Origin: an uncultured Dehalococcoidia bacterium
GTDB taxonomy: Bacteria; Chloroflexota; Dehalococcoidia; Lucifugimonadales; UBA3495
Direction: 5' to 3'
Assembly: GCA_958296385.1 (NCBI GenBank)
Contig: OY282494.1
Span: 2,622,981-2,686,980 of the forward strand
Length of the DNA: 64,000 bases
This document shows, piece by piece, positions 6,213-62,031 of the stretch (position 1 is its first letter; each line of letters opens with the position of its first letter). Made by a program: the position numbers and the translations under genes. The notes beneath the pieces were generated by a model that did not search any database, was not told the DNA's origin, and worked only from the letters and a program-made list of their open reading frames with translations.

Positions 6213-7709
6213 ATGCTGGATACCGGAGTAGGCATTGCAACGGTCGTGCTGGTCTGCGCAACCTTTCTGTTCCTCGGCGTCACCTACATCGGGCGCCGCC
6301 GCCAAAGCGTGGAGGATTACACCGTCTCACGCAACCACGCCCCGGCCAACGTGGGCATCGCCACCCTGGTGGCGTCCATGTTCGGCACCTGGGTGCTGCT
6401 CAGCCCCGGCGAAACCGGCGCCAACTTTGGCATCATCTCCCTCGTCGGCTACGCCCTGGGCATCGCCGCCATACCCGTAATGTTCATGTTCGTCGGCCCC
6501 CGCATCCGCCAGCTGATGCCTAACGGCCACTCCATAACCGAGTACGTCAAACACCGCTTTGGCCTGATTCCATTCGTCGCCATCTCGGTGGTAATCATCT
6601 TCGTAATCGGCATATTCATTACCGCCGAGATGACCGCCATCACCGCCGCCGTCAGCATCCTGACCGGCTCGCCGGCGTGGGCTACCGCCGTTGCGGTGGG
6701 CGTGGTGGTGGTGGCCTACACCGCATACGGCGGCCTGCGCGTGTCCATCTACACCGACCGCATCCAGTTCTGGGTGCTGATTCCGGTGCTGCTGCTGCTG
6801 GTCATCGTCGCGGCGGTTATAGTTACCGGCGATGGCGTCTGGGATGTGGCCGGCCAGGCCGGGCTGCTGTCGGTTTCCACGCCGGGCAGCTACTACTTTG
6901 GCATCGTGCTTATCATCGGCATCGTAGCGTCCAACGCGTTCCACCCCGGAATGTGGCAGCGGGTGTACACCGTAGAGAGCCAGCGCGCGCTCAACCGCAG
7001 CCTGCTGGGCGCGGCGGCCCTGGCGATACCGATTACGTTCCTGATGGGAATGGCCGGCATCGCGGCAGTAGGCAACGGCTCCGTCGGCCCCTTCGAGTAC
7101 CCCGCAGTTGCCGCCGCCCTGTTCACCCTGGCCTCCGACGTGTTCCCCCTGTGGATGCACTTCCTGATGCTGGTCTGTGCCCTGATGCTGGCCATGAGCA
7201 CGCTGGACACCCTGATGAACGGCCTCGCCAGCGGCATCGCGGCCGACCTGGCCGGCGCCGGCATGGGGCGCAGCATCCTGATGCTGCTGGCCCGCTCCGT
7301 AACGGTAATCGTCGCAATCCCGGCCGTCATCGTCGGCGCGCAGGGCTTCAGCGTGCTGTACGTATTCCTGATTGCCGACCTGCTGGGCGCCGCCATCGCC
7401 GTGCCGATGCTGGTGGGGCTGTACTCCCGCCGGATGCCGGGCTGGGCCGTGCTGCTGTCCGGCGGCGCCGGCATCATCATCGGCGCCCTGTTCTACCCCA
7501 AACCCGACTTGATTTCGCCCTGGGCCATCGCCGCCCCCTTCGGCGGGCAAATGTTCTTCGCCTTCGCCTCGGCAGTGGTAGTGTCATCGGCAATCGCCGC
7601 CGCAGTCATCCTGCTGCGCCGCCTGGCCGCCCCCCAGCAGCAGTACGACTTCCGCATCCTCAACACCGGCGTACAGCTGATTGACGAGCCGTCAGCCGCC
7701 GACGACTAG
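6213..7709 (+). CDS. Sodium:solute symporter (SSS) family transporter, probably thiamine or thiamine-precursor uptake (ThiV-like)
   Basis: 498-aa multi-pass hydrophobic protein with an SSS-type N-terminus (EDYTVSRNHAPANVGIATLVASMFGTWVLLSPGE). Sits directly downstream of the TPP riboswitch, with a GGAGG RBS. Confidence 0.85.
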   Translation: MLDTGVGIATVVLVCATFLFLGVTYIGRRRQSVEDYTVSRNHAPANVGIATLVASMFGTWVLLSPGETGANFGIISLVGYALGIAAIPVMFMFVGPRIRQLMPNGHSITEYVKHRFGLIPFVAISVVIIFVIGIFITAEMTAITAAVSILTGSPAWATAVAVGVVVVAYTAYGGLRVSIYTDRIQFWVLIPVLLLLVIVAAVIVTGDGVWDVAGQAGLLSVSTPGSYYFGIVLIIGIVASNAFHPGMWQRVYTVESQRALNRSLLGAAALAIPITFLMGMAGIAAVGNGSVGPFEYPAVAAALFTLASDVFPLWMHFLMLVCALMLAMSTLDTLMNGLASGIAADLAGAGMGRSILMLLARSVTVIVAIPAVIVGAQGFSVLYVFLIADLLGAAIAVPMLVGLYSRRMPGWAVLLSGGAGIIIGALFYPKPDLISPWAIAAPFGGQMFFAFASAVVVSSAIAAAVILLRRLAAPQQQYDFRILNTGVQLIDEPSAADD

Positions 7710-19663: not shown

Positions 19664-21175
19664 GGTTCCAGAGGTTCAGTATGACTACCACAACCATCAC
19701 CGCCGTCAAGAAGCCGCCACCGCCACCGTTACCGTCCGCACCGGCCCCGGCCCGTTTCCGGTTCCCGGACCCGCCTGAACGTGAGATTGATGAGTCAATG
19801 ACTAACCACCGACAAATGACCTATACGGGCCACTGCCACCACTTGGCCCGGTATCTCGGCAATGAGGCTACCACCCTGGTCACCGCGGACCGTTGGATTG
19901 CGCGTGGGCCGCGCCCCGGCACTACCGGCCTGCGTCTGCCTGATTTGCTCGTGGCTTTTGACGTTGACCCGCAGGCTTACCATGCCACCCGGGGTTATCT
20001 AATCACGGAGCAGGGCAAGCCGCCGGACTTTGTGCTGGAAATAGCCTCGCCAAGCACGGGCAAGGTGGACGTTGAGGAGAAGCCGGCTGATTATGCGGGG
20101 CTGGGCATCCTGGAGTACTGGCGCTTTGACGAGACGGGGGATTCTCACGGAGTGCGGCTGGCCGGCGACCGTTTGGTGAATGGCCGGTATGAGCCTATCC
20201 CTATTGAGGAACTGCTGGATGGGTCTTTGCAGGGGTACAGCCCCGTGCTGAACGTGTACCTCCGGTGGGAGCCAGTGCAGGGGGAGCAGGGTATGTTGGG
20301 CTGGTATGACCCGGAAACGGGGCAGCACATCCCGACGTTTGACGAGGAGAGGGAGGGGCGCATCATGGAGAGGGAAGGCCGCATCATGGAACGGGAGGGG
20401 CGCCTCCGGGCCGAAGCCAGGGTTCGCGAATTGGAGGAGGAAAACCGGCGACTGCGTGGCGGCTAGCCCCCGGCGCTGCTCAAACCGTGTCCCATCAGGT
20501 TCCAGAGGTTCAGTATGACTACCACAACCATCACCGTCGTCAAAACGCCGCCACCGGCACCGTTACCGTCCGCACCGGCGCCGGCCCGTTTCCAGTTTCC
20601 GGACCCGCCTGAACGTGAGATTGATGAGGCAATGACTAACTACCGACAAATGACCTATACGGGCCAATGCCACCATCTCGTCCGGTATCTCGGCAATGAG
20701 GATACTACCCTGGTCACTGCGGACCTTTGGATTGCGCGGGGGCCGCGCCCTGGCACTAGCGGCCTGCGCCGGCCTGATTTGCTCGTCGCTTTTGACGTTG
20801 ACCCGCAGGCTTACCATGCCACCCGGGGTTATCTAATCTCGGAGCAGGGCAAGCCGCCGGACTTTGTGCTGGAAATAGCCTCGCCAAGCACGGCCAAGGT
20901 GGACGTTGAGGAGAAGCCGGCTGATTACGCGGGGCTGGGCATCCTGGAGTACTGGCGCTTTGATGAGACGGGGGATTCTCACGGAGTGCGGCTGGCCGGC
21001 GACCGTTTGGTGGATGGGCGGTATGAGCCTATTCCGATTGAGGAATTGCCGGATGGCTCGTTGCAGGGGTACAGCCCCGTGCTGAACGTGTACCTGCGGT
21101 GGGAGCCCGTGCAGGGGGAGCAGGGTATGCTGGGCTGGTATGACCCGGAAACCGGGCAGCACATCCCGACGTTTG
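19664..21175 (+). repeat. Tandem direct duplication (two ~0.67-kb copies, period 834 nt) spanning both Uma2 genes and their 17-nt leaders
   Basis: GGTTCCAGAGGTTCAGTATGACTACCACAACCATCACC occurs at 19664 and again at 20498. The copies stay colinear with scattered substitutions until the C-terminal tails diverge. Confidence 0.85.
19681..20466 (+). CDS. Uma2-family (DUF820) PD-(D/E)xK endonuclease, copy 1
   Basis: PDLLVAF...PDFVLEIASPST...EEKPADYAGLGILEYWRFD is the Uma2 D...E-x-K signature. The C-terminus carries EREGRIM tandem repeats. Confidence 0.8.
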   Translation: MTTTTITAVKKPPPPPLPSAPAPARFRFPDPPEREIDESMTNHRQMTYTGHCHHLARYLGNEATTLVTADRWIARGPRPGTTGLRLPDLLVAFDVDPQAYHATRGYLITEQGKPPDFVLEIASPSTGKVDVEEKPADYAGLGILEYWRFDETGDSHGVRLAGDRLVNGRYEPIPIEELLDGSLQGYSPVLNVYLRWEPVQGEQGMLGWYDPETGQHIPTFDEEREGRIMEREGRIMEREGRLRAEARVRELEEENRRLRGG

Positions 21176-21405
21176 ACGAGAGGCAGGAAGCCCAACTCCG
21201 AGCCGAGGCCCGCACCGAACAGGAGCGAGCCGCCCGACTCCAGGCTGAATCCCGGGCTGAACAGGAACAGGCCGCCCGACTCCAGGCTGAAACTCGCGCC
21301 GAGCAGGAGCGGTCTGCCCGCCTCCAGGCCGAGGCTCGCTCCGCGCAGGCTGAGGCGGAGGTGCGGGCTTTGCGGGAGCGGCTGCGGTTGCAGGGGGGTG
21401 GCTGA
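20515..21405 (+). CDS. Uma2-family (DUF820) PD-(D/E)xK endonuclease, copy 2
   Basis: Near-identical to copy 1 over roughly the first 220 aa. It has a different C-terminal tail made of three 14-aa R(A/T)EQE(R/Q)(A/S)ARLQAE(S/T/A) repeats. Confidence 0.8.
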   Translation: MTTTTITVVKTPPPAPLPSAPAPARFQFPDPPEREIDEAMTNYRQMTYTGQCHHLVRYLGNEDTTLVTADLWIARGPRPGTSGLRRPDLLVAFDVDPQAYHATRGYLISEQGKPPDFVLEIASPSTAKVDVEEKPADYAGLGILEYWRFDETGDSHGVRLAGDRLVDGRYEPIPIEELPDGSLQGYSPVLNVYLRWEPVQGEQGMLGWYDPETGQHIPTFDERQEAQLRAEARTEQERAARLQAESRAEQEQAARLQAETRAEQERSARLQAEARSAQAEAEVRALRERLRLQGGG

Positions 21406-21552: not shown

Positions 21553-21688
21553 GCGCTATTGTGATGTTTGCTGTTAATTTTTGCCGCTCGGCTCCCTTTG
21601 GGGGTTGGAGGGTTTGCTTATGGTAGCCGGTTGGGGACGCGCTTTGCCGGCGCTGGGTCTGGGTCTGGGTCTGGTGGGTGTGAAAGTC

Positions 21689-21708
21689 GGGGGGGGGGGG
21701 GGGGGGGG
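21689..21708 (+). repeat. Homopolymeric G20 tract at the 5' end of the giant gene
   Basis: Counted directly: 20 consecutive G, ending 7 nt before ATG 21716. Confidence 0.95.
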
Positions 21709-21715
21709 TAGTGTG

Positions 21716-24700
21716 ATGCCCCGCCTGGGCCAGCGCCAGGGCTATCGCCGTCGCTTTGGGCGCGGCCGGTTTGTGCTGGCCGGGTTGGTTGCGCTTTTGC
21801 TGCTGCTGGCGGGGCTGGCTCTGTTTGGCGGCGCCGGGGATGTGTTGGCGCAAAGCACCACCGACTACGATACCAACGACAACAACCTCATCGACATCAC
21901 CACCCTGGACCAGCTTAACGCCATCCGGCACGACCCGGACGGCGACGGCGACCCGACTTCCGGGGGAGCTACGGCTTACAACGACGCCTTTCCATCTCGC
22001 GAATCCGGCGCTACCGGGCGCATGGGCTGCCCCAATACCTGCGCCGGCTACGAGCTGCGGGCTGACCTGGACTTTGACACTACCGGCAACGACGACATCG
22101 CCGACTCGCCTTATGCCAGCTGGACGCCCATCGCGGGTTACACAAACACGTTCCGGGGCAACGGGCATACCATATCTAACCTGACCATCAACGCAACCGG
22201 CAGCTCGGGCGTCTTGTACGCCGGGTTGTTCGCCAGTATCAGCAGCGCCGTCTCCGGCGTGGGCTTGCCTAACGCCAAGATAACGTCATCCCACACCGGC
22301 AACTTCCTGCTGATGGGGCCGCTGGCCGGCAACGTGGCTACCGGCGGGACGGTAACCTCCAGCTGGGCCACCGGCAGCGTTACTTCCACCGCTACCGGCA
22401 GCGGCTTCAAGTTCATCGGCGGGCTGGTGGGTCATAACGAAGGCCCGGTGCGGGCCAGCTATTCCGGGGCATCGGTAACGGCAACGACTACGGCCACGGC
22501 GGTGAGAGTCGGCGGGCTGACCGGAGGGCTGAACCTCGCTAGTGGCACGGTGACCGCCAGCTATGCCACCGGCGCGGTATCCGGCGGCAGTGGCAACGGC
22601 TCCCACGTGGGCGGCCTGGTCGGTCAGTTCCGCTCCGACGACCCCAGCATCATCGCGTCTTACGCCACCGGAGCCGTTACCGGCGACGCCGGCGCCAAGG
22701 GCGGGCTGGTCGGCAGCGCGGGCAGCGGCACCATCACCGACAGCTATTGGGATGTTACCGCCAGCGGCGTTGCCGATGATGCCGACAGCCCGGCCGGCGA
22801 GGGCAAGACTACCAGCGAGTTGAAAACGCCCATCGCCTACGGCACCGGCGCCAGCATCTACGCCAACTGGAACGTGAACGCGGACGGCGATACTACCACC
22901 GGCGCAATGACGACCGGCAACGACGACCCCTGGCACTTTGGCACGGCCAGCCAGTACCCCATCCTGCAATTCGACCGGGATGCCGCCGCCATCGACCGGC
23001 AGTACGGCAACGCCGCCGTGAACTACGACGCCAATAACAACAATCTGATTGACGTTGCGACGCTGGCCCGGCTGGACGCCATCCGCTACGATTTGGACGG
23101 CGACGGGGTGACGGCAACCGGGGCGGACGCCGTTAAATACGCCAGTGCGTTCCCCGGCCTGACCGCCGGGATGGGCTGCATGAGTGCCTGCATTGGTTAC
23201 GAGGTGCGGGACGACCTGGACTTTGACACGGGCACGGCCGGCAATCGTGGCGATGATACTTATGCCAACGGCACTCTGGGCTGGGAACCCATCGGCAACG
23301 CTACTACCACGTTCACCGCTATCTTTGACGGCAACAGCGACGACTACACCATCTCCAATCTGTACATCAACCGCCCTACTGGGGACGGGGTGGGGCTGTT
23401 TGGGCGGACTAACGGCGCTACCCTGCGGAACATCGCCCTGGAGGACGTGGCGGTAACCGCCGCCAGTCGGACTGGCGCGCTGGTGGGCCAGGCCGACGGC
23501 GGCACTATCAGCAGCAGCCACTCCACAGGCGGCACGGTTACGGTAAGCGGCGACGTGGCCGGCGGGCTGGCGGGGCAGGTTAATGGCGCCGGCGCCATCA
23601 GCGGCAGCTACTCTACCGTCAACGTTGTCGCGTCGGGGGGCGAGGCCGGCGGGCTGGTTGGGCTGCTGATGAGGGAAAGAGTCCTGGTGAACGTCGCTAA
23701 CGTCAGGTTTGATACCGGCAGCGTTAGCGGCAGTTATGCTACCGGCACGGTTGGGGGGACGACTAACGTGGGCGGGCTGGTGGGCCGCGTCTATCTGGGC
23801 AGCATATCCGACAGCCACGCTACCGGCGCCGTCAGCTCGGCCAGCGCCGGTGCCAAAGTGGGCGGGCTGGTGGGCTATTTGCAGATCGAAGCCGAAACCG
23901 CCAGCGCGCCACCAGTGCAGGCAGCCGGCAGCATTAACGCCAGCTACGCCAACGGCGCGGTCAGCGTTACCGGCGCCAACGTCCACGCCGGCGGGCTGGT
24001 GGGAGAAAACTACGCCGGTCTGATCAAGGATGAATTCACCCAAAGCCGGGCCACCGCCAGCATCCGGGCCAGCTACGCTACCGGCGCAGTGGGGGGCACC
24101 GGCGCGGCCAACCGGCTGGGCGGGCTGGTCGGCTACAACAACGCCAACCGCACCGAGCCGAGACCGGGATTCGCCCCGCGCGGCACTGCCACCGCTGAAA
24201 TCATCGCCAGCTACTCCAACGGCCGGGTAACCGGCGCCGGCGCCGGCACCCAAAAGGGCGGCCTGGTGGGCGGAAGCCGGGGCCGACAAAGCACCCCCGG
24301 AGCCAGCGGGTACAGCGATACCGTCATTACCGACAGCTATTGGGATGTTACGGCCAGCACGGTTGCCGATGATGCTGACAGCTCGACCGGGGTGGGCAAG
24401 ACGCTCAGCGAGTTGCAGACGCCCACCGCTTACGGCACGGCTACCAGCACGCCGCCCAGCATTTACGCCAGCTGGAACCTGAACCTGGACGCCAGCGCCG
24501 GCAACGACGACCCCTGGGACTTTGGCACTAACAGCCAGTATCCCGTCCTCAAGCACAACCGCGACGCCGACGCCATCGCCCGGCAAAGGGCCGCCAACCA
24601 GGTCATCGACTACGATGCCAACAGCAACAACTTGATTGACGTTAAGACGCTGGATCAGCTGAACGCCATCCGGCACGACCTGGACGGCAACGGCGATGCG

Positions 24701-45700: not shown

Positions 45701-47317
45701 GACGACATCGACACGCTAACGCACACGCCCAGCGCCGGCGGCTACCTGGCCACCGCAGCCGCTACGGTATCCGTAATCGCGCGGGACACCACCGCGCCGG
45801 TCATCACTTTGACCCCGGCCAGCCTGCCGTCCCTGAATGAGAACTCCACCGACGACTACACCGTGCGACTGGCGTCTGAGCCGGCGGCTACTACCACCGT
45901 CGCCATCGCCAGCAGCAACGCCGGCGTCACCGTTTCACCGAACTCCCTGAGCTTCACCACTGCCAACTTTGGCACTGCCCGGCCGGTAACGGTAACCAGT
46001 ACCACCGACAGCGACGCGGTGCACAACGCGTTCGGGATAACGCACACGCCCACCATCCGGGGCATCGCCAGCCCGGCCACGCCGCTGCCCCTGCTGTTCC
46101 TGGAGCCGGTTCCCCCCGGCGGCGGCGCCACGACGACTCCCATCGAATTCCTGGCGCCGACGCCCGGCAACACCGCAAGGTACGCCGTTGACGCCTCAAC
46201 GACGCACACGATAACCACCGACGCCGGCGTCCCCGAGGGCGTAATCATCCGGTCAGTAGGCGGCGTGGGCCTGGCCTCGAGCACCACCATAACCATCGGC
46301 ATCGCGGCGCCCGCCCCCCCAATCACACATCCCGGCTACACCCTGGACCCGGATACACTGGTGGACATCACCGTAACGCCGGTGCCAACAGTCGGCCTGC
46401 AAGTCTGCCTGCCCCTGCCCCAGGCCGGCGGCCCCGGCGGCCCCCGGATGCTGCACTACGATGGCAGCCGCTGGCGGCTCGTGTCGGGCTCCCGGCAAAT
46501 CGGCAGCCAAGTCTGCGGCACCGCAACCGACTTCTCCCCCTACATCGCCGGCCGCCTCGCCCAACCCATCGCTGAGCCGTTGCCTCCGTCCGATGGCGGT
46601 GGCGGCGGCGGTGGCGGCGCTGGCGGTGGCAGCTTCGGCGGCGGTGCACCGGCCCCGACAGCCACGCCGGCCCCAACGCCTACGCCCACGCCAACTCCGG
46701 CCGCACCGGCGCCAACCCCGACGCCGGTAACGCCCACGCCGGCCCCCGAGCGGCCCACGCCCACGCCGGCCCCCACACCCACGCCAGCGCCGCCGCCGGC
46801 CGCATCCCCCACGCCAACGCCGGCCGCCCCGCCAACAGCGGCCCCGCCGCCGCCGCCCCCGGTAGCCGCCGCTATCCAGCAGCCGGCCATCATCGGAGAT
46901 ATAACCTTCAGCAACGACAGCCCCGAACCGGGCAGCGGAATACTGGTAAGGTTCCCCGTAACCAACCCCGGAACCATCACCGCGGAGTACCAGCTAATCC
47001 TCGAAGTAGCCGGCGAAACCGTCCAGCGCCAAACGGTAACCATCCCGCCCGGCGCAACCCAGGATTTGCGCCTGCCCATCATCGCCCCGGACGCCCGCGC
47101 TGCGGTAATCGTCAGGGTGGACGAGCAATCCCGGACGGTAATCCTGACGCCAGCCCGCCCAGCAACCGGAACGGGAACCGGCACCGGCGCCGGAACCGCC
47201 GCGCCTGTCGACGAACCGGCCGGCGGCGCGCCCTGGCTGCTAATCGGCATAATCGCCGTAATCGCACTGGCCATCATCGGCGGCGGCATCGCCCTGCTGA
47301 TGCGTAGGCGCGGCTGA
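21716..47317 (+). CDS. Giant (~8,500 aa) secreted, C-terminally membrane-anchored modular surface protein (GLUG beta-helix modules, cadherin-like and Calx-beta-like beta-sandwich arrays, CARDB-like domain)
   Basis: One uninterrupted frame (the track gives 21581-47317, 8578 codons). ATG 21716 yields MPRLGQRQGYRRRFGRGRFVLAGLVALLLLLAGLALFGGAGDVLA/QS, a classical signal peptide. The protein sequence is coherent and repetitive but not degenerate throughout. It ends with PWLLIGIIAVIALAIIGGGIALLMRRRG. Confidence 0.9.
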   Translation: MPRLGQRQGYRRRFGRGRFVLAGLVALLLLLAGLALFGGAGDVLAQSTTDYDTNDNNLIDITTLDQLNAIRHDPDGDGDPTSGGATAYNDAFPSRESGATGRMGCPNTCAGYELRADLDFDTTGNDDIADSPYASWTPIAGYTNTFRGNGHTISNLTINATGSSGVLYAGLFASISSAVSGVGLPNAKITSSHTGNFLLMGPLAGNVATGGTVTSSWATGSVTSTATGSGFKFIGGLVGHNEGPVRASYSGASVTATTTATAVRVGGLTGGLNLASGTVTASYATGAVSGGSGNGSHVGGLVGQFRSDDPSIIASYATGAVTGDAGAKGGLVGSAGSGTITDSYWDVTASGVADDADSPAGEGKTTSELKTPIAYGTGASIYANWNVNADGDTTTGAMTTGNDDPWHFGTASQYPILQFDRDAAAIDRQYGNAAVNYDANNNNLIDVATLARLDAIRYDLDGDGVTATGADAVKYASAFPGLTAGMGCMSACIGYEVRDDLDFDTGTAGNRGDDTYANGTLGWEPIGNATTTFTAIFDGNSDDYTISNLYINRPTGDGVGLFGRTNGATLRNIALEDVAVTAASRTGALVGQADGGTISSSHSTGGTVTVSGDVAGGLAGQVNGAGAISGSYSTVNVVASGGEAGGLVGLLMRERVLVNVANVRFDTGSVSGSYATGTVGGTTNVGGLVGRVYLGSISDSHATGAVSSASAGAKVGGLVGYLQIEAETASAPPVQAAGSINASYANGAVSVTGANVHAGGLVGENYAGLIKDEFTQSRATASIRASYATGAVGGTGAANRLGGLVGYNNANRTEPRPGFAPRGTATAEIIASYSNGRVTGAGAGTQKGGLVGGSRGRQSTPGASGYSDTVITDSYWDVTASTVADDADSSTGVGKTLSELQTPTAYGTATSTPPSIYASWNLNLDASAGNDDPWDFGTNSQYPVLKHNRDADAIARQRAANQVIDYDANSNNLIDVKTLDQLNAIRHDLDGNGDATHADYVAAFPNAVTGMGCPDTCAGYELLNDLDFDTDDDNDVDSNDDYPNWTPIGTAVAPFTTTFDGNNNVISNLTITSNSNRVGLFGQSEGTLSGIGLENVNVTGSAQFGYIGTLAGRNLGTVISSWATGTVEGSNRGAQTGGLVGRSFNSSIRASYADVAVTVASSAQQASFGGLVGRAYGTRIIASYATGSVSGGFSNSSNAGGLVGNLVVNSSIEESYATGRVTVGVGVLIGGLAGRLENSSTPRSYWDSIASGRGGSGSKTTYELRGPTAYGTATSTPPSIYASWNVNVDGNAATGDSTGRDDPWDFGTDTQYPVLKFDGMDVAAQQGRQPNISNDSSLSALAVSEVTPLVPAFATGTDTYTAMLPVGSAARTVTVTATTTDMTLAASVTYSAVAGGGSAVTADADPGTAGHQVVLGGPSTVITVTGRAQDGSRSSYTVTITGIPENDYDTNNNDLIDVISLDQLNAMRYDLNGDGTAESNGVLYANAYPLPAARMGCPNGCTGYELRNDLDFDTINDDNEADAPYDNWVPIGTDGAQFSGAFQGNGHSISNLNVNAGANVVTLGLFGTVSGAISGVGLPNARIAGARAQATAIGTLAGTLGGGGTATSVWATGSVASSDAGGGTKYIGGLVGYQAGTVLASYSGATVTVDNAATSVYAGGLTGLVQGSVIASYATGAVSGGTGAGAHVGGLAGRVNAAGSRITASYATGTVTSGGANVGGLTGSVTNSVNVGSSYWDTITSGIADDADNTAPEGKTTYELRMPTAYGSSSADLYAFWNLDLDNADNDNTLTTGRDDPWEFGTNAQYPILKYGGLASSTQRAILPSPSSTDSTLSALSVTGVALRPVVFDAATLAYTAALGADSDLSSVTITATPTDMASVSISAVIGSGAAVTSDADTVAAGYQVALGSPTTTVTITVAAADGSRTTYTVTITVPPADYDADNDNLIDVRTLDQLNAIRYDLGGNGVADDSTDQATYSMAFPRAAAGMGCPSTGCTGYELLNDLSFDTNGDGVISFLDGAYEHWEPIGKSGAPYTATFKGNGHTIDRLNIVAEDVGQVGLFGAVGVARDSGNNITMTGAISGVGLPNANVSTQSTATNVVGTLVGYLDGGSVTSSWAAGKVEEKSEDNSGKQVGGLVGIASGAVRDSYARVSVMTDARISDVHAGGLVGQLNGGTITASYATGAVSGGIQNGSYVGGLVGWVSNTASITASYATGQVSINTGVNGGGLAGNMAGSIMNSYWDVTTSGVADDADSPAGEGKTTIELQTPTAYGATGIYSAWNVNVDGVSGIDDPWYFGTSSEYPILKHQRSVINIDWQRNPTLTKKNYDDDGDNLIDITTLAQLDAMRYDLSAGGEGSIAEANRIKYAAAFPGLTPGMGCDDGCTGYELRRNLDFDTDNTGAVDSSDAYPNWTPIGSSGSPYGGEFKGNNFTISNLTINAPASIREMGLFGGAGGAISGVGLPNVKITGAAVALNAGALAGVLSGSVTSSWATGTLEARNSGLGGFKYVGGLVGWMVSSGDYVRASWANVAVTAPTSFVSAGGLIGLLDSGDVIASYALGAVSGGEGGPSRTGGLVGAVTGNGSTITASYATGPVTGQDGSSVSGLFNTLINTPTIANSYWDSIRSGIADDSDDDAPEGRATYQLRGPTAYGASTTTDLYFAWNVDVDNADGDNDLTTGTDDPWDFGTNLLYPVLQYDGMDAAGQKAVQPTISTDSTLSGLSVAPARLVETFAAGTDSYTATLPAMSTALSVTVTATTTAMTARGVSYSAVAGGGSPVTADADTGADGHQVTLVGPMTDITITVMAEDGSTQSYTVSITVPENDYDDNDNGLIDVRTVEQLNAIRYDLNGDGTTNAGDAAAYAAAYPYPMAGMGCQAVDHDNDANTANQPVCTGYELRQNLDFDTTGDDDTADAPYENWVPIGAGSTQYSGEFKGNNFTIANLTIDAPASIDEVGLFGGPVGAISGVGLENVKITGAAVALKAGALAGVSQGSVTSSWATGTLAASDGSNSIKQLGGLVGRLVNSDVIASWANVSVSAPDSAIGIYVGGLVGIVNNSDVIASYATGAVSGGGAGSRIGGLAGFMEGGGSTITASYATGPVTGGNGSTQSGLLSAFVGTITNSYWDAIRSGIPDDADDAAPEGKTTYELRSPTAYGASTSTGLYVAWNVDVDNADGDNNLATGGDDPWDFGTNLEYPVLKYDGADAAGQKTGQPTPSTDGTLSGLSVAPAMLTTTFAAGTASYTATLPPGATPLTATVTATTTAATARGVSYSAVAGSGSPVTADADTSADGHQVTLVGPLTVITITVMAEDGSPQTYTVSITVPTHDYDTNNNGLIDVTTLERLNAIRYDLNGDGTANAGDAAAYAAAYPYPMAGMGCPSATCTGYELRNALDFNTGEANIRTDDTYYNDGEGWAPIGGVTGRFATAPSETYTGAFNGNGFAISNLQIDRTGSDSSDADSYIGLFGDASGRIEQVALVNAEVKGETVVGTLVGRLASGGSIVASYVQGGLVEGHSYIGGLVGINQPNASITASYTDIRVNNTYTGSIFGGTGYATGGIAGIHAGRIIASYAMGSVERQPLTGTRASTGGLSGFTGSNSPAQATTNSYWDTVRTGQATEFGFPRTTAGGKATYELRTPTNAGGYAGIYANWNLNIDGDTGTGTPTTGLDNPWDFGTGMQYPALRYGGHSAAAQFARQPDIGTNDELSSLTVAPATLAPDFSASVIEYTATLPDSNPAALTVAGVTATTTDVSISAVIGSGAAVTTDADAVAAGYQVTLGSPNTVITVTATAPDGSTTTYTVTISIPANDYDADDDGLIDITTLAQLNAVRYDLDGDGAVSSGDAANYASAFYYPAAGMGCAAVDHDNDANTADQPVCTGYELMADLDFDTDDSGGVDSSDTYPNWAPIGSVSSSFTGDFEGNGHTIANLTINNTSGSGALRLGLFGNIGGSVSGVGLPDASISSSYSGTLLMGPLAGNVIGNGTVTSSWATGSVESTDTGGAKFIGGLLGHSERPVRASYSGASVTAPNTATGVSAGGLAGALFSTSTVTASYATGAVSGGTGSGSHVGGLVGQFRSSTASIIASYATGAVTGGGTGANVGGLVGSAGTATITNSYWDVTASGVADDANSPAGVGQTTTALQTPTGTTGIYSGWDVNVDGESGNDDPWHFGTASQYPILQFDRDVIAIERQYSNVGKDYDDDNDNLIDVTTLAQLDAIRYDLNGDGAGWAKGSASARYATAFPGLSAGMGCPDGCAGYELLADLDFDSNDDGEVNSSDAYPNWTPIGTAAAPYTATFNGNHRTIANLTVNAAASVGRVGLFGEASGAISRVGLPDVSISAAAAGLLAGALVGFLDEDGTVTSSWATGSVTATDTGSDAQSIGGLVGETSGAVRGSYAGVSVTAPNTATNVRAGGLVGYSAVVTASYATGAVAGGAGNDSDTGGLVGLSGATGAGSAVATASYATGAVTSGIGANVGGLAGRSVFMSIPTVNSYWDTEKSGIAAGASSYGVGKTTSELQTPTAYGDIYAMWNVDVTDTGNIDDPWDFGLNSQYPALKYDGMDVLRQGRNTILFSTDALDVTEEDSAGANYTVRLGGAPKAGTTVTVAITSPADDDVTIATDGTFSDSATLRFTDADYTTGQTVTVKAGGDANLANESLTLTHTASGAGSGFADATADLTVTVIDNDTGAILLRQSGSDITALTITEEASSDTEYQVSLDQPPLASVSITITSSDADAVRIHDGSSTFTDSDFGSSHTLTFAAGTTTAQTVTIRAPHDSDGNEGSATLTHTAAGTGHGYNNASTTLSVTVTDDDTPAVLLWEAAAETASSTLTVAEEGSGSYRVRLQTQPTADVTVTVTASGDLTIDDSTGNDFATTKTLTFTGGSGGNWETAQTIRVRAAADVNLANETLTITHAVTSTDPAYTGLSDVSLTVTVEDDDTNAAAIILKQNGTATSTLSLIEGAAAAEYTVELSHEPSHDVEVTVTAAGDVTIDGPDVPTTLTVSETLTFTAGSYGPQIIRAQAASDSDLFDDTLTITHAAADATSGMASGYAGVSKDLAVTVADDDQGEIRVTSGGSVVELGVTEEHSGTVTYDVELVQTPLANVTVTVAVPSDYTDVLEIDGPDAGLTFSSSETINFTPTDHGKKTITLRAKADDDDDGATFSLTHTAADATSTASGYDGVTKDQLVRVTDNDVPGITLSVTTALAVREENASPVTYTVVLDTKPGADVIVTVTAGTNLEIDDSAGDDFGGSETLTFTSMDWNTAQTIRVNALADDNVVHETTAITHVVTSTDTAYNAVGDESLAVNVTDSDTAAIVLATTTLMITEGGSDTYTVKLSNEPSAEVTVTITSPADDDVTIATDGSTFSDSETLTFDADWNTGKTVTVQTAEDDDDLGNDTAILTHTASGVGSGYESASTTALTVTVEDNDSGDILLRQSGADIATLTIDEEASDTTYQVSLAQAPLADVSITITSSDADAVRIHDGGSTSTDADFGSSRTLTFDAGVTTAQDVTIRAPHDHDGIPGSSTLTHAAVGTGHGYNNARATLDVTVNDNDTPAVLLWEATDDSASSTLTVAEEGSASYRVRLQTQPSADVTIDVTAAGDLTIDDGDGTFGTTEELTFTSGSSGNWNTPQTITVRAAADNNLADETPAITHAVTSTDTNYGSLSDVSLTVTVKDNDTGSIVLTDSSNDPLTALTIDEGAAPITYKVALSHKPLADVTVTFNRTSGNVTIDTNNDNTFAATGETLTFTTTNWNVAQPVRVQAGDDFNLADDSGSINHVASNAATGVASGYAGISKALSLTETDTDTPTIKLTHATTGNAITELTVTEGNDVEYKVELSHQPLHPVTVTVTSNDSDAAIIEGPDSGSDFSDSETVLFTVSNWNTAQTVTVRAPQDNDDDNESPTLTHTPTDTTSGSESGYAGITAVTLPVTVMDDDLPGILLWEAAADTASSTLTVAEEGSASYRVRLQTQPSAAVTVTITAGTNLEIDDNNDNDFGTTETLTFTVMNWNTAQTVRVNALADDNLADETPALTHDIASISDTAYNAVSNVTLTVTVKDNDDAAIIIKQSGSEITALSLTEAAAASSYTVELSNQPSANVTVLVTATDDVTIDDNSGTDFDTTETLTFTANTWDDPQTIRARAATDPDLSDDDTTITHVASDATVGSVSGYAGVRKTLDVTETDSTTPTVVLTDSGGDAITTLDVTEDAGNVTYNVGLSNPPLAAVTVVITSGDADAVQIDDGGTFGTSRTLNFAIGATAAQPVTVKAPHDNDDDNESVTISHNPDGAGSGGYETIASQDLTVAVDDDDDPAIALYHATDLTATTTLTVTEEATATYRVRLASQPTQSVTVTITPSAGLQVDDGGGTFANSGTLTFPASDWDDLQTVTVQAAEDVDLTDTTITIAHSTDSTDTDYARAAGLSATLTVTVEDNDTASIILSETGTLALTEQAAAVNYTVKLSHQPAASVTVTVTSAGAVTIDDNTGTDFSTSETLTFTGGGSGNWNTPQTIRVQAGDDSNLEAETSTITHAIASTGDANYNALEDVSLSVSIADNDTGDIELTQSGSAIAANTLAINEEASNTTYSVGLSEAPLAQVTVTITSGDADALQIHDGGSDFNDADFSGSRTLTFASGVTTAQEVTIRAPHDGNSISERVTITHVAGGTNNGYVGVSKSLTVNVADNDTPGIALVISELTVTEENTSGGTYDVALQTQPNADVTVTVTAPDGLTIDGPAAGTNFTSSVTLDFTTINWETGQTIAVRAAADDNLSHDTHQISHVAADATSTASLYAGLSKDLAVTVEDNDNPTIIVATSTLTVMEGDTETYTVRLSHQPAHGVTVTIASGASDGVEIDGPDNGATFSNSETLFFTNSASSWQTPQTVTVRGLSDADLSDSTGNTLTHTASNTVSSQDSLFTSAPAVTLTFTVDDDDTGDILLTQNSAAITSLTINEEHATDTTYQVALSEAPLADVTITVTTDDNDAVTIDGPDGNSDFTNSEALLTFNSTNYATPQTVTIKAPADNDPDNESVTLTHTASGGTNNGYGGVSKDLSITVSDDDSPNIALSVSALTVAEENTSPATYTVVLATQPTADVTVTVTASGDLEIDNNTGNDFGSSETLTFTGGATGNWETAQTIRVNATGDNDLKDDTPTITHNPSSTDNDYNVLDNKTLNVTITDDDTGSIVLEQGGSALTTLALSEGGSTVNYTVELSHQPTANVDVTLTATDDVTIDNASGNDFDTTETLRFTPGNWQTAQTIRARAANDNDLGNDTTTITHVAADAATGVTSDYASVSNTLDVTVTDTTTPTVVLTDSGGDTITALAVDEEGSNVTYDVALSNRPLDSVTVTVTSGNVAVTVDDGDGTFGSSDALTFTTTNWSTAQPITVKALADDNSTNESVTLTHAAADATSGMTSGYAGISDVTLTVNVDDDDDPEILLWHPTDDTATTSLTVTEEGTQSYRIRLNTEPRAAVNVTVSARAGLEIDNGSGTYGSSRTLNFSTTNWNSPQTVTIRATADDDLAVGSGTLSHAARNAGSTASDYHGLSKSLPVTITDNDTPTIIISETGTLSVDEGGNTTYTVWLSNRPAAGVTITITSSATDDVEIATDGTFGDSATLRFSTGDWNSRKTVRVQGLPDNDLSNDLNNTLTHAASNTTAADSLFASAADAELSVTVTDTTTPSIVLTQSGAAISGALGINEEGGNVTYGVGLSNAPLAPVTVTITSGNAAVEIHDGSSAYNDANFSSSRTLTFATGATAAQMVTLRAPNDPGPDHETVTLTHAGSGSLSGYESVSDATLTVNVTDNDTPALLLTPTVLTVTEEDSAGESYTVSLTTQPSADVTVAVTAPAGLTIDGPDDATDFTSSETLTFTNANYAAKTITVKADADDNLIANNFTITHNPSSTDSNYNALPNSSLSVTVTDDDTGSLILSETSRTVIEGETTGQTYTVKLSHRPNAAVTVTITSTGKAAATPASLTFNTSTWDREQTVTVKAVADVNIIDDIDTLTHTPSAGGYLATAAATVSVIARDTTAPVITLTPASLPSLNENSTDDYTVRLASEPAATTTVAIASSNAGVTVSPNSLSFTTANFGTARPVTVTSTTDSDAVHNAFGITHTPTIRGIASPATPLPLLFLEPVPPGGGATTTPIEFLAPTPGNTARYAVDASTTHTITTDAGVPEGVIIRSVGGVGLASSTTITIGIAAPAPPITHPGYTLDPDTLVDITVTPVPTVGLQVCLPLPQAGGPGGPRMLHYDGSRWRLVSGSRQIGSQVCGTATDFSPYIAGRLAQPIAEPLPPSDGGGGGGGGAGGGSFGGGAPAPTATPAPTPTPTPTPAAPAPTPTPVTPTPAPERPTPTPAPTPTPAPPPAASPTPTPAAPPTAAPPPPPPVAAAIQQPAIIGDITFSNDSPEPGSGILVRFPVTNPGTITAEYQLILEVAGETVQRQTVTIPPGATQDLRLPIIAPDARAAVIVRVDEQSRTVILTPARPATGTGTGTGAGTAAPVDEPAGGAPWLLIGIIAVIALAIIGGGIALLMRRRG
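21863..35400 (+). repeat. Ten tandem coding modules (1.1-1.6 kb each) of the GLUG type
   Basis: Module starts ((D/N)YDxNxNxLID) at 21863, 23021, 24608, 26054, 27527, 28691, 30182, 31691, 33134 and 34301. Each module contains GNGHTISNL, many GGLVG repeats, and a SYWD...DDPWDFGT..QYP.L end. Confidence 0.85.
35411..46108 (+). repeat. About 29 tandem coding units (~105-128 aa) of a Calx-beta/cadherin-like beta-sandwich, including a 6-unit super-repeat
   Basis: Each unit has the pattern LTV.E....Y.V.L...P.A.VTVT.T......ID.......LTFT..NW.T.QT..V.A..D.D...E...I.H........L.VTV.D(N/D)D. Units 1-6 (35411-37654) are colinear paralogs of units 7-12 (37655-39904). Confidence 0.8.
46595..46862 (+). repeat. 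Low-complexity Gly run followed by a Pro/Thr/Ala linker (coding)
   Basis: GGGGGGGGAGGGSFGGGAPAPTATPAPTPTPTPTPAAPAPTPTPVTPTPAPERPTPTPAPTPTPAPPPAASPTPTPAAPPTAAPPPPPP. Confidence 0.9.
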
Positions 47318-58635: not shown

Positions 58636-58760
58636 AATATGCCTCCCATTAGGCGTGGCGTGGATGTAAATGCAGATGCGGTTTCTCCGCCGATGCCCAT
58701 TATGCCACAAGTACCGCCCCAACCGGCGCCGACGATTGCCTGCGATTAGCAGGTTGGCGC

Positions 58761-59087
58761 TTACGGCTCGGGCAGTCCGAGAAAGTCACCGGAAACGACA
58801 AACAAGTACTCGCCCCAGCAGGCAACGCTGCCGTCGGCCTTGATACCGCAAGCGTGGATTGTTCCGGCGCTGATTTGACGAAAATTTCCTCCCGGCGGGT
58901 TGGCTTGTCCCAATTCATTACTACCCCAACAGGCAACGCTGCCGTCAGTCTTCACCCCGCAAGTGTAATCATTCGAGGAGCTAACTTGACTAAAACTCCC
59001 TTCCGGCGGATTAGCCTGTCCAAACTCATCACTGCCCCAGCAGGAAACGCTGGCGTTGGTCTGCTGGAACCGATGGGTCAAATCCAA
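58761..59087 (-). pseudogene. RCC1-like repeat fragment (about 2.5 blades); possible gene remnant or small ORF
   Basis: SVSCWGSDEFGQANPPEGSFSQVSSSNDYTCGVKTDG / SVACWGSNELGQANPPGGNFRQISAGTIHACGIKADG / SVACWGEY. Too short for a 7-bladed propeller, no signal peptide, and lower GC. Confidence 0.45.
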
Positions 59088-59314
59088 CTTCAGCGCAAGT
59101 TGAGAATACCGCCTGGGGGGTGGGGTTGCTTTTTTGGGGGTGGTGTGTATGATTGGTTTGTTTGACGCTGTGCTGGAGGTGGCTGGGTTTGCGGCTGCCG
59201 GAAGGCTTGGCGATTGATTGAGCTGATGCTGCTGATTCAGATGCGGCGGCGGATGCGATTCGGGGTGTATTTACAGTGACGTTGCTAGGTTCGTTCCGCG
59301 CTTTGCTATCATCT

Positions 59315-59336
59315 CCCCCCCCCCCCCCCCCCCCCC
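59315..59336 (+). repeat. Homopolymeric C22 tract upstream of the LRR surface-protein gene
   Basis: Counted directly: 22 consecutive C. They are in frame (Pro7) with the downstream KRR-hydrophobic signal sequence. Confidence 0.95.
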
Positions 59337-59393
59337 GCACTTGACCCGGTAAAAAGGCGTCTTATTGCGACGGCGGCGCTGCTGGCCGTCGTT

Positions 59394-61868
59394 TTGGCGG
59401 GGATTGGGGTTGCGCTCATGATGGATGGGCGGTCGGCGTCGGCGCAGTCGGCGCCTTGTACTGCGACCAGCCCGGCGCTGAGTACGTGGCTTAGTACGAC
59501 ACCGGCGCCGTCGACTACTACGACGGCCGCGCTGATTGCCGACTGCAACACGCTGCTGGGCCTGGAGGGCACCCTGGCCGGCACCACCCTGGATAGCATG
59601 GGCCAGCCCGTGGATAGCATGGGCAACGCCGCGGATAGGCTGGGTTGGGACCAAGTAGTGTCTTTGGATATGTGGCGGGGCATAACGGTAGAGGCTTCGC
59701 CGACGCCCGCCACCGGCGCTTACCGGGTTACCAAAGTGAATTTGGAATGGAGGTCGAGCACCAACTCGGCGAGGCAGCGTCTGCAAGGGCAGATTCCGGC
59801 GGCGCTGGCGAATTTGCCGGGGTTGAAGGAGCTGGATCTGTCAAGGAACCAGCTGACGGGGGGCATACCCACGGAATTGAGTACGCTGGCCCATTTGGAA
59901 ACGCTGAATTTGGATCGGAACACCGGTCTCACCGGGGGGATACCGGCGGAGCTGGGCAGCCTGACCGCGCTTAAGGAACTGGACTTGACGTTTATCCCGC
60001 TGACGGGCAGCATACCCGTCGAGCTGGGGAACCTGTCTAACCTGGAGCGGCTGGCATTGGTGCAAAATTCGCGTGTTTCCCAACGACTTTCCGGCACCCT
60101 GCCCACCCAATTAGGTAACTTGGGCAACCTGAAGCACCTGCTTATAATCAACACCGACATCACCGGAAACATCCCCGTCGAGCTGGGCAACCTGTCGAAT
60201 CTGGTGACCTTGCAGCTTTGTAATAATGATCTCACCGGGACGATTCCGAAAGAGCTGGGGCGGCTGTCTAATCTGGAGAACCTCTGTCTGCGGGGCAACC
60301 GGCTGACGGGGAGTATTCCGAAAGAGCTGGGGAGCCTGTCGAACCTGGAAACGCTGTCGCTGAACGAGAACCGGCTGACGGGGAGCATCCCCAAGGAGCT
60401 GGGGAGCCTGTCGAACCTGGAACGGCTGTATCTGTACGACAACCGGCTGACGGGGAGCATCCCCAAGGAGCTGGGGCAGCTGTCCAGGCTGGTGTATCTG
60501 TTTCTGAGGGATAACAGGCTGTCCGGGGCAATTCCGCCGGAAGTGACTGGGCTGACCGGCCTCGCAGGTTTGGGTCTCACAGGCAACTCACTGGAAAGCC
60601 GGGTTGCGCTAACGCTGTCCAGGACCGAAATCGGCGAGGGGGACGGGGCGACGGACGTGGTGGTGACGGTTAATCCGGCCGGCAGTGATACATGGGGGGC
60701 GAACCGTATCGGGGGGAACGTTGCCAGCGGGGTGACAATCCGGGCGGCGGCCAGCGGTGGGGCGAACGTCGTTACTTTTGCGGTGAATGAACCGGCGGCC
60801 TTCGATATACCCAGGGCGGCGACGACGACGGAGCGCAGCGTTACCCTGCGGATAACGCCCAATGACAACACCGTAATCAATGCTGACGAGACGATTACGG
60901 TAACGGTAAGCGGCACGGGGGCGCCGGGCGCGGCGAACACCGCGCTGAGAGCGGCGGCCGATTACGAGATTACGCTTACGGATGACGACCAGCCGGTGGT
61001 TGCCGACCCGACGCCGACGCCGACGCCAGCACCGACGCAGGCTCCGGCGCCGGCTCCGACTCCGGTGAATGATGATGACGATGACGATGATGACCCGCCG
61101 CTGACGCCAACGGCTACGGCAACACCGACGATGCCGGCCGCAACGCCGGCACCGACGACGCCGGCCGCGACGCCGGAGCGGGAGCCGGCCGCTACGGTGG
61201 CACCGACGGCGCCGGCCGCAACGCCTACTCCGACGGCGGCGCCTACTGTGGGGGCACCGACGGCGCCGGCGGCAAGGCGCACGGCGGCGCCGGCAGTTAC
61301 GGCAACGCCGCCGCCGCCCATGCCAACAGCGGCGCCGCCGGCGGATTCGCCTACGCCAACGCCGGCAGCGCCACCAACGGCGGCGCCACCGACGGAGCCG
61401 CCGCCGGCCGCGTCCGTCATCCAGTCGCCGGCGGTGATTGGTGAGATTACGTTCAGCAACCCCAGCCCGGCGCCGGGGAGTTCGGTGCTGGTGGAGGTTG
61501 CGGTGAGCAACCCCGGAACCGGGCCGGCCGGGTACCTGCTGGAAATCACCGTAGCCGGCGAGGTAGTGCAGCGGCAGACGGTGACGGTGGAGGCCGGGGA
61601 AACGGAGCAAGTGCGGCTGCCGGTGGTGTCCCCGGACGTGCCAGCTGAGGTGGTGGTTCGGGTACGGGATCAGTCGCAAACGGTGACGCTGACGCCGGCT
61701 ACGGACGGGAGCGGCGGGGGAGGCGGAACCGGCGGCGGAGGGGCGACGGGCGACGTGGAAACGGTCGGGGGGCCGCCGTGGCTGCTGATGGGGGTTCTGG
61801 CGGGGGCAGCGGCGGTAGTCCTGGGAGGGTTCGTCGTCCTGCTCCGGAGGCGGGGGCGGGCCGGCTGA
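59394..61868 (+). CDS. Leucine-rich-repeat surface protein (24-residue LRRs) with one Calx-like unit, a PT linker, a CARDB-like domain and a C-terminal TM anchor
   Basis: About 11 repeats of LxxLxxLxLxxNxLTGSIPxELGxLSN. The tail ...PPWLLMGVLAGAAAVVLGGFVVLLRRRGRAG matches the giant protein's. The annotated TTG 59394 cuts into the signal peptide (KRRLIATAALLAVVLAGIGVALMMDGRSASA/QS), so the true start is unresolved. Confidence 0.85.
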   Translation: MAGIGVALMMDGRSASAQSAPCTATSPALSTWLSTTPAPSTTTTAALIADCNTLLGLEGTLAGTTLDSMGQPVDSMGNAADRLGWDQVVSLDMWRGITVEASPTPATGAYRVTKVNLEWRSSTNSARQRLQGQIPAALANLPGLKELDLSRNQLTGGIPTELSTLAHLETLNLDRNTGLTGGIPAELGSLTALKELDLTFIPLTGSIPVELGNLSNLERLALVQNSRVSQRLSGTLPTQLGNLGNLKHLLIINTDITGNIPVELGNLSNLVTLQLCNNDLTGTIPKELGRLSNLENLCLRGNRLTGSIPKELGSLSNLETLSLNENRLTGSIPKELGSLSNLERLYLYDNRLTGSIPKELGQLSRLVYLFLRDNRLSGAIPPEVTGLTGLAGLGLTGNSLESRVALTLSRTEIGEGDGATDVVVTVNPAGSDTWGANRIGGNVASGVTIRAAASGGANVVTFAVNEPAAFDIPRAATTTERSVTLRITPNDNTVINADETITVTVSGTGAPGAANTALRAAADYEITLTDDDQPVVADPTPTPTPAPTQAPAPAPTPVNDDDDDDDDPPLTPTATATPTMPAATPAPTTPAATPEREPAATVAPTAPAATPTPTAAPTVGAPTAPAARRTAAPAVTATPPPPMPTAAPPADSPTPTPAAPPTAAPPTEPPPAASVIQSPAVIGEITFSNPSPAPGSSVLVEVAVSNPGTGPAGYLLEITVAGEVVQRQTVTVEAGETEQVRLPVVSPDVPAEVVVRVRDQSQTVTLTPATDGSGGGGGTGGGGATGDVETVGGPPWLLMGVLAGAAAVVLGGFVVLLRRRGRAG
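59781..60598 (+). repeat. LRR coding array with near-identical 72-nt repeats
   Basis: NRLTGSIPKELGSLSNLE(T/R)L occurs three times in succession between about 60290 and 60500. Confidence 0.85.
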
Positions 61869-62031
61869 CGCCGGGCGGCATTGGCTGACCCCCGCCGTAA
61901 TTCCCCTGCCCCCAACGGCGTTGCCCCCAAGCGTGCACCCACCGTTGCGCCCCGTGCGGTGACGTGGCAAACTCGCATATCCATCAGCCATCCATCCGCA
62001 GCGCCAACCGGCCCGCTGCAACGAGGACTTT

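Follow-up and report, generated by a model that had tools for sequence, protein, structure and literature searches.

A 22-nt cytosine tract in front of a leucine-rich repeat surface-protein gene of an uncultured Dehalococcoidia bacterium: a candidate translational phase-variation switch

Repeat-driven phase variation is part of the textbook biology of host-adapted pathogens. In Neisseria opa (CTCTT) and in the Helicobacter pylori genes hopZ, oipA and sabA (CT), the repeats lie in the 5′ coding end that specifies the signal peptide, and so in the cleaved leader of outer-surface proteins, with several paralogues per genome that switch independently. The poly-G contingency loci of Campylobacter jejuni, known as its ‘phasome’, comprise several G/C homopolymers per genome, concentrated in genes for surface structures, where two of the three reading frames are truncating. 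Promoter homopolymers form another known class, represented by the poly-C runs of Bordetella pertussis fim2 and fim3, by Neisseria porA and opc, and by the poly-G runs of Treponema pallidum tpr; here, long G/C runs of strain-variable length lie 5′ of surface-protein genes. The tracts of the pilC1 and pilC2 genes of Neisseria gonorrhoeae and Neisseria meningitidis are about 10–15 nt long. In these adhesin genes a poly-G tract lies in the signal-peptide sequence, between the start codon and the cleavage site, and causes frameshift phase variation between ON and OFF states, whilst in-frame changes of length leave the mature protein unaffected (PMC13017665). Repeat-driven phase variation in the Chloroflexota was essentially undocumented in the literature that we searched. 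Here, we analyse a C22 homopolymer in front of a leucine-rich repeat (LRR) surface-protein gene in 64,000 nt of DNA from an uncultured Dehalococcoidia bacterium of that phylum (contig OY282494.1 of assembly GCA_958296385.1, positions 2,622,981 to 2,686,980); this whole stretch is called the window below, and all features are on its forward strand unless stated otherwise.

The tract consists of exactly 22 C residues at 59315–59336, as an earlier note on this DNA had described. From the base composition of the window (65 % G+C), the expected number of runs of at least 22 C is about 1e-6, and a run-length scan of the 64 kb found no other G/C run longer than 8 nt, except for a G20 run discussed below. 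The C22 tract is thus a simple-sequence repeat of the hypermutable-length kind, far beyond chance. As an observation in its own right, G/C runs of 7–8 nt number 10 across the window against roughly 30 expected by base-composition arithmetic, and it would seem that short G/C runs are avoided, while the two 20–22-nt tracts are kept.

Translation of the locus bore out the reading frames given in the earlier note. The frame of the LRR open reading frame (ORF) is open from the TAG at 59286–59288 through VRSALCYHL and seven proline codons supplied by the C run (Pro7) into ALDPVKRRLIATAALLAVVLAGIGVALMMDGRSASA/QS, and contains no ATG, GTG or TTG before the TTG at 59394, which sits within the hydrophobic core of the signal peptide. 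The only near-cognate codons in this frame before TTG 59394 are ATT 59364 and CTG 59379/59382. In the neighbouring frame, a leader segment at 59276–59314 begins with GTG 59276 or TTG 59282, the only canonical starts able to reach the signal peptide; in the sequenced state, this frame reads VTLLGSFRALLSS, Pro7 and RT, and stops at the TGA at 59342–59344.

When the locus was rebuilt in silico with tract lengths of 15–30, and again from the leader start, leader and signal peptide were fused only at lengths divisible by three (15, 18, 21, 24 and so on). The lengths of 23 and 20 that the earlier note had named for the fusion are wrong; from C22, the nearest fusing lengths are 21 and 24. The out-of-frame states terminate 2 or 5 codons past the tract. 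Relative to the leader, the LRR ORF is +1 in the C22 (3n+1) state, which is closed by the TGA at 59342–59344, and −1 in the C23 (3n+2) state, which reads VTLLGSFRALLSSP8HLTR and is closed by the TAA at 59350–59352.

Our data are consistent with a model in which slipped-strand events at the C tract switch translation of the gene ON and OFF, as in phase variation of the pilC/opa type, and in which the sequenced state is OFF or leaky; we regard this as probable, if only modestly so. In this model, the C run would be a hypermutable simple-sequence repeat near the start of the coding sequence, ahead of the point at which the signal peptide is cleaved. Initiation at GTG 59276 (or TTG 59282) would lead through the tract, read as poly-proline, into the KRR n-region and the rest of the signal peptide, provided that the number of C residues is divisible by three. 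That number would rise or fall through slipped-strand mispairing at replication, giving one ON frame and two OFF frames, and such switching would presumably be reversible and frequent, with an OFF state that yields no exported protein. As the tract would lie in the portion cut off by signal peptidase, length changes of 3 nt would leave the mature protein unaltered. The geometry in silico fits a repeat inside the frame and downstream of the start, if the predicted GTG or TTG is used for initiation and not ATT 59364, the rival considered below.

The likeness to pilC1 and pilC2 would lie in a G/C run that is read as part of a surface-protein gene, 3′ of its predicted start codon and 5′ of the signal-peptide cleavage site, and in the frame logic, but the tract described here is about twice as long (22–23 nt) and precedes the n-region, whereas the pilC tract is within the signal peptide. 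In addition, the host is an uncultured member of the Chloroflexota rather than a proteobacterial pathogen, the system is known from sequence, and an ON allele is not among its two known alleles. The opa, hopZ, oipA and sabA genes would share with our locus the position of the repeat in a cleaved leader and the presence of paralogues, but they carry oligonucleotide repeats instead of homopolymers of 13–23 nt and belong to different protein families. The phasome of Campylobacter is similar in its multiple G/C homopolymers and truncating frames, but that organism is AT-rich and its G8–G13 runs are mostly inside enzyme genes, whereas here the DNA is 65 % G+C, short runs are depleted, and the tracts are restricted to a single family of anchored proteins. 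The homopolymers of promoters, as long G/C runs of strain-variable length 5′ of surface-protein genes, resemble C22, whose two known lengths are one base apart, but they act on transcription via promoter spacing; at C22 there are no flanking promoter elements, and the frame logic is complete.

The earlier note had proposed a comparison with sister genomes, and three related contigs were recovered by exact-protein look-ups of a neighbouring cupin gene. One of these, L003 (ENA ERZ19489098 contig_39), matches 13 kb of the window at 98.6 % identity and with an unchanged gene order; its tract is C23, and about 480 nt of the sequence flanking it are 100 % identical. The presence of the same tract with identical flanks in a second assembly indicates that it is a real feature of the organism. 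An Illumina poly-G artefact or a chimeric join was considered and rejected, as the tract is internal and the flanks match in two assemblies. At neither length are GTG 59276 and TTG 59282 in frame with the signal peptide, and on the switch model the window and the sister strain would both be in OFF frames. A search for a third allele, using an exact-flank pattern with a variable gap in the genome and JGI metagenome contig collections, gave zero matches; module-based locus searches of both collections found no true relatives, and the cupin-neighbour loci of more distant relatives differ in synteny and have no LRR gene and no tracts.

Further support for a switch comes from two paralogues of similar layout. 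The only other long run in the window, G20, occupies the equivalent position in a gene for a giant surface protein of 8578 aa, whose 5′ end (21620–21718) was read from the sequence and by frame simulation. Here, GGAGGG is followed after 7 nt by ATG 21620, a 23-codon leader (MVAGWGRALPALGLGLGLVGVKV), the G20 run (21689–21708) read as Gly7, and TAGTGTGATG; the residues after G20 are SV and then MPRLGQRQGYRRRF..., a basic n-region opened by ATG 21716. The second paralogue, P0151 (1566 aa), lies on the 2.14-Mb contig of a sister strain (L024; ENA ERZ19488967 contig_1) and has the same arrangement at 4001–4080 of that contig: GGAGG, 8 nt, ATG, a 19-codon leader, G13 (4056–4068), TAGAATGATGG and MMGRRRIRIS.... 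The 5′ regions of the two G-run genes are clearly homologous (0 of 2000 shuffles reached their score). In both, one frame fuses the leader to the signal peptide, and the other two stop within 0–2 codons of the tract, either at a TAG directly past it or at a TGA that overlaps the n-region ATG. Both genes were sequenced in the fusion frame. All three family members with readable 5′ ends thus have a G/C run of 13–23 nt between the leader start and the export signal, so that several loci of one design and one three-frame logic exist in this lineage, and the LRR gene is one of at least three of its genes for anchored surface proteins that have this layout. Other loci of the lineage and its relatives, about 200 kb in all, contain no further G/C run of at least 9 nt.

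This pattern allows a broader proposal, which we consider possible but doubtful: that the lineage has a small phasome of its own, a lineage-restricted family of membrane-anchored surface proteins with a translated leader and a run of 13–23 nt before the signal peptide, in which the G-run genes have three expression levels. In the G-run genes, where the tract is followed by TAG and then TGATG, the three frames would correspond to fusion, to a stop 4 nt before the main ATG, and to a stop–start overlap, and tract length would set three levels of expression; the LRR gene, which has no downstream ATG, would be the strict ON/OFF version.

The claim of the earlier note that a switch had been captured in an OFF or attenuated state remains the best-supported reading, and has been strengthened by the C23 allele, by the two paralogues of similar layout, and by the strain-specific cassette in which the LRR gene lies; its ON lengths did not survive, no ON allele was seen, and ATT 59364 stands as a rival start. 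The original observation is real apart from its frame arithmetic, and a switch is the best available, though unproven, interpretation.

Several findings weigh against a switch, and a first group of them concerns initiation. The Shine–Dalgarno-like element 8 nt 5′ of GTG 59276 (GGGGTG, 59262–59267; its role is putative) is weak: GGAG, GAGG or AGGA is found upstream of about 65 % of the called genes of the lineage, whilst the sequence before GTG 59276 is merely G-rich. ATG is the start codon in 41 of 48 called genes. An ATG follows the tract in the G-run genes, but not in the LRR gene. Codons are rare both in the leader (mean log-odds −0.54, GC3 0.54) and in the ten codons past the tract (log-odds −0.57, GC3 0.30), and neither segment comes within the values seen for the opening ten codons of 18 reference genes, as would be expected for untranslated sequence. 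Moreover, the similarity of the LRR leader to the paralogue leaders is not significant. A shared CGCGCTTTGC was tried as a sign of leader homology and rejected (140 of 2000 shuffles), and the two upstream regions within the window show no homology beyond G/T-richness.

In an alternative that we consider rather unlikely, the tract is part of the 5′ untranslated region (UTR), translation starts at ATT 59364 (or CTG 59379/59382), and tract length tunes transcription, mRNA stability or ribosome access and not the frame. A candidate ribosome-binding site and non-canonical start, AAAAAGG followed after 6 nt by ATT, is present at 59351–59366 (from sequence and codon usage), and the corresponding gtAAAAAGGcgtcttATT resembles start regions of the lineage such as aaaaaggaagatgcattATG, with ATT in place of ATG. 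Codon usage turns sharply coding-like exactly past 59366 (from 59367, the h-region has log-odds +0.35 and GC3 0.86). In neither allele is the upstream GTG in frame with the ORF, and in the G-run paralogues a start codon stands directly 3′ of the tract, which would also agree with a start past the tract. However, ATT starts are very rare in general, and there are none among the 48 called genes. A signal peptide begun at ATT (M-ATAALLAVV...) would have no positive n-region, although K-R-R is in frame just upstream, and the bases of the AAAAAGG/ATT element double as these K-R-R codons in the ORF frame; the other exported proteins of the lineage have strongly basic n-regions (MPRLGQRQGYRRRF..., MMGRRRIRIS... 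and MDTRTRAANLHRP...). Secretory genes quite often begin with rare codons, which reduces the weight of the codon-usage argument, and no promoter-like site was found in 58700–59700.

A second group of points that count against a switch concerns tract length. Neither known allele is in the ON frame, so that the pair does not comprise one ON and one OFF state. The hifiasm-style ‘ptg’ and Flye-style ‘contig_’ contig names suggest that both are long-read assemblies, in which case the difference between 22 and 23 may be one of consensus, and run length would be uncertain by a base or so; we infer that the difference is biological. The G20 run is 20 nt in three contigs, but the 441 nt aligned around it are the same in all of them, which speaks for reproducible calling and not for stability of the run. 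The apparent OFF state could instead stem from an error of sequencing or consensus, which we consider unlikely; the gene would then be ON with poly-proline in a long signal peptide, and its true tract, of 21 or 24, need not be a switch at all. Long homopolymers are error-prone in long-read data, the two assemblies are one base apart, and both G-run paralogues are in frame, as this alternative would have it. Against this, it would need two independent consensus errors, and the identical calls of G20 indicate that runs of 20 nt were reproducibly callable in this project. A mononucleotide run of 13–23 nt is, in addition, intrinsically unstable in replication, which makes a fixed tract unlikely.

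The remaining reservations about a switch concern how tight the OFF state would be. The C tract far exceeds the 9–10 bp RNA–DNA hybrid, and RNA polymerase slippage, which is efficient on runs of 9 A or T, may make the OFF state leaky (PMC5009743). Proline codons of the CCC-C type form a classic site of +1 slippage, and OFF may for that reason be ‘low’ (PMC7577736). Taken further, RNA polymerase slippage, +1/−1 ribosomal slippage, or both, might mix the frames and give a constitutive, reduced level of protein from GTG 59276 at any tract length, which we think improbable. Known cases of this type are the A9 motif of Thermus thermophilus dnaX and the T5C5 motif of IS630 from Roseiflexus, itself a member of the Chloroflexi, in which a coding-region homopolymer produces a mixture of frames at the RNA level (PMC5009743). 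These motifs are short and fixed, and set a product ratio, with the help of a hairpin for IS630, whereas the C tract is long and differs in length between its two alleles, and no stimulator was found. T5C5 slippage was undetectable without the stimulatory nascent-RNA hairpin (PMC5009743), and no figure for slippage efficiency on a long pure C run was found in the text consulted. Pathogen poly-G tracts of about 9–13 nt produce clean ON/OFF phenotypes, which also counts against slippage as the explanation. At the C tract there is no stimulatory hairpin or significant RNA fold (z = −0.87) and no Rfam match, and a structured-RNA reading was rejected on the same grounds. That the ORF is intact in both alleles, +1 in one and −1 in the other, would suit a slippage mechanism indifferent to length, but a programmed recoding site normally has a single set frame and a stimulator, and here two frames occur.

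The translational switch was also compared with the promoter-geometry alternative of the earlier note, in which the tract alters the spacing or position of promoter elements, as in Bordetella fim and Neisseria porA/opc. The TTGACC on which it was based is present at 59341–59346 and adjoins the tract, and promoter homopolymers are a known class. However, the promoter scan of 58700–59700 found no sigma-70-like hexamer pair and left TTGACC without a −10 partner, and C22 accordingly does not have the promoter-spacer layout of fim3, porA or opc. A −10 element 17 nt past TTGACC would place the transcript start inside the signal-peptide coding sequence, and the charged n-region would be lost. The paralogue runs, furthermore, lie 3′ of a strong ribosome-binding site and ATG, inside a translated leader. 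We regard a promoter switch as extremely improbable. A target on the minus strand was likewise tried and rejected: the complementary G22 encodes Gly7 in a 103-aa ORF (59029–59340) with no Pfam match, and the RCC1-repeat ORF beyond it is a truncated remnant.

The genomic setting of the tract is strain-variable. Contigs L002 and L004 are about 96.5 % identical to the window over the aligned parts, and their homology to it ends near 59062, within an RCC1-repeat gene; homology to L022 and L023 begins at 61889, 20 nt past the LRR stop codon. These breakpoints delimit an accessory cassette at a rearrangement junction (59063–61888), which contains the complete LRR gene together with the C run and the sequence 5′ of it, and is absent from the sister strains L002 and L004. 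It adjoins the last 108 codons of a truncated RCC1-repeat gene (58761–59087, minus strand), which in L002 and L004 is intact (657 aa), with a lipoprotein-like signal at its N-terminus. Strain variability of this kind is common for accessory surface genes, and we count it in favour of a switch.

The same setting could point to loss, with the LRR gene a strain-specific accessory gene that has been silenced by the RCC1-truncating rearrangement or by tract drift, and the tract without a regulatory role. The cassette is absent from sister strains and adjoins a truncated gene, a canonical in-frame start is missing in both alleles, and dN/dS is about 0.6 over the variable half of the gene. Comparison with L003 speaks against such decay. 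The first 300 codons are identical, and about 150 substitutions are found in the C-terminal half along with several indels that keep the frame, but the 2.5-kb ORF, with its 152 substitutions, is open in both strains, and a gene that remains open with in-frame indels in a sister strain is not simply decaying. The junction lies about 250 nt 5′ of the tract, with leader and signal peptide undamaged, and the tract position recurs in two intact paralogues. We consider loss very unlikely. The LRR gene is mosaic, with its linker and CARDB-like module strongly divergent between window positions 60840–61868 and L003 positions 6369–7400; such a pattern is suggestive of recombination between paralogues with a common anchor module.

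The predicted product has the features of an exported and anchored protein. The signal peptide (59352–59444) was identified by eye from a von Heijne-type pattern, and consists of the basic n-region KRR, a 21-residue hydrophobic core (LIATAALLAVVLAGIGVALMM) and the c-region DGRSASA, with its ASA motif and predicted cleavage before QS (59445); the predicted tryptic peptide beginning at the cleavage site is QSAPCTATSPALSTWLSTTPAPSTTTTAALIADCNTLLGLEGTLAGTTLDSMGQPVDSMGNAADR. The mature protein (59445–61868; from Pfam profiles and the ORF) contains, in order, an LRR domain, a Pro/Thr-rich linker, a CARDB-like module (about 61446–61664), and a transmembrane helix with the tail RRRGRAG (about 61773–61865) before the stop codon. 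LRR_1, LRR_8, LRR_4 and LRR_14 score above the Pfam cut-offs, so that tandem leucine-rich repeats, as in bacterial LRR surface proteins, are recognized by curated profiles; the match to CARDB is below its cut-off. Together, the predicted signal peptide, the LRR domains, the weak CARDB-like match, and the C-terminal helix with its basic tail suggest a surface-exposed protein. A whole-protein homology search returned thousands of LRR relatives, none of them full-length, and gave no information on the N-terminus, and protein look-ups found no record of a product from any of the three possible starts.

Gene callers placed the start of the LRR gene too far inside it, at an ATG past the export signal: the automatic call in L003 starts at 8828 (window 59418; MMDGRS...). 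A product from ATG 59418 would have a C-terminal membrane anchor without an export signal, and this, together with codon usage, indicates from the sequence that the real start must lie at or before about 59367. The only canonical starts 5′ of this point are GTG 59276 and TTG 59282, from which the signal peptide is reached through the tract, and we count this in favour of a switch. The call at ATG 59418 is an annotation error of a kind that the tract is likely to cause wherever the LRR gene is called. The apparent intactness of such genes, in these probably long-read genomes, is decided by tract length.

The giant protein, P0151 and the LRR protein share a C-terminal anchor module, composed of a CARDB-like domain, a Gly-rich stretch, a transmembrane helix and RRRG. 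In the window, it is found at 61446–61865 and 46900–47317, with the pattern ITFSN..PG..VAGE.VQRQTVT.., the Gly-rich stretch, a PWLL transmembrane helix and RRRG, and it scores below the Pfam cut-off for CARDB. Two word-indexed searches with the C-terminal module found only a fragment (P0121), and the family emerged from an exhaustive profile search, in which only 8 proteins among 1.84 billion representatives matched at E<1e-30. The module appears from these searches to be almost confined to the lineage; P0151 is a complete member.

The mechanism proposed here is already known; what is new is the phylum, the run length, the three-gene family, and the TAG/TGATG layout of the G-run genes. If the phasome proposal were true, it would be, to our knowledge, the first repeat-based phase variation described in the Chloroflexota, and a graded, three-state form of it. 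LRR proteins of the ‘eukaryote-like’ kind are often linked to host or cell–cell interaction, and this one is encoded on a strain-specific cassette. If the tracts switch, the bacterium would vary its surface stochastically, which would bear on the ways in which uncultured bacteria cope with grazers, phages or hosts. The locus yields a simple prediction that can be checked at read level in existing data.

Some further features were observed around these genes. The leader of the giant gene contains a hexanucleotide repeat, (GGGTCT)3, at 21655–21672 (LGLGLG), beside G20. Directly 5′ of that gene lie two tandem Uma2-family endonuclease paralogues (19681–21405; 94 % identity over 683 nt), the second of which has a RAEQE-rich C-terminal repeat extension. 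Just 5′ of the P0151 gene (L024 3700–3860), there are at least 3 copies of the CRISPR-like repeat GATTCCCCCGCACACGCGGGGATAGACC with spacers of about 32 nt. Lastly, in the L002/L004 strains, NadC is on the same 2.14-Mb contig as the cupin genes but about 290 kb away from them, and the two are relatively inverted.

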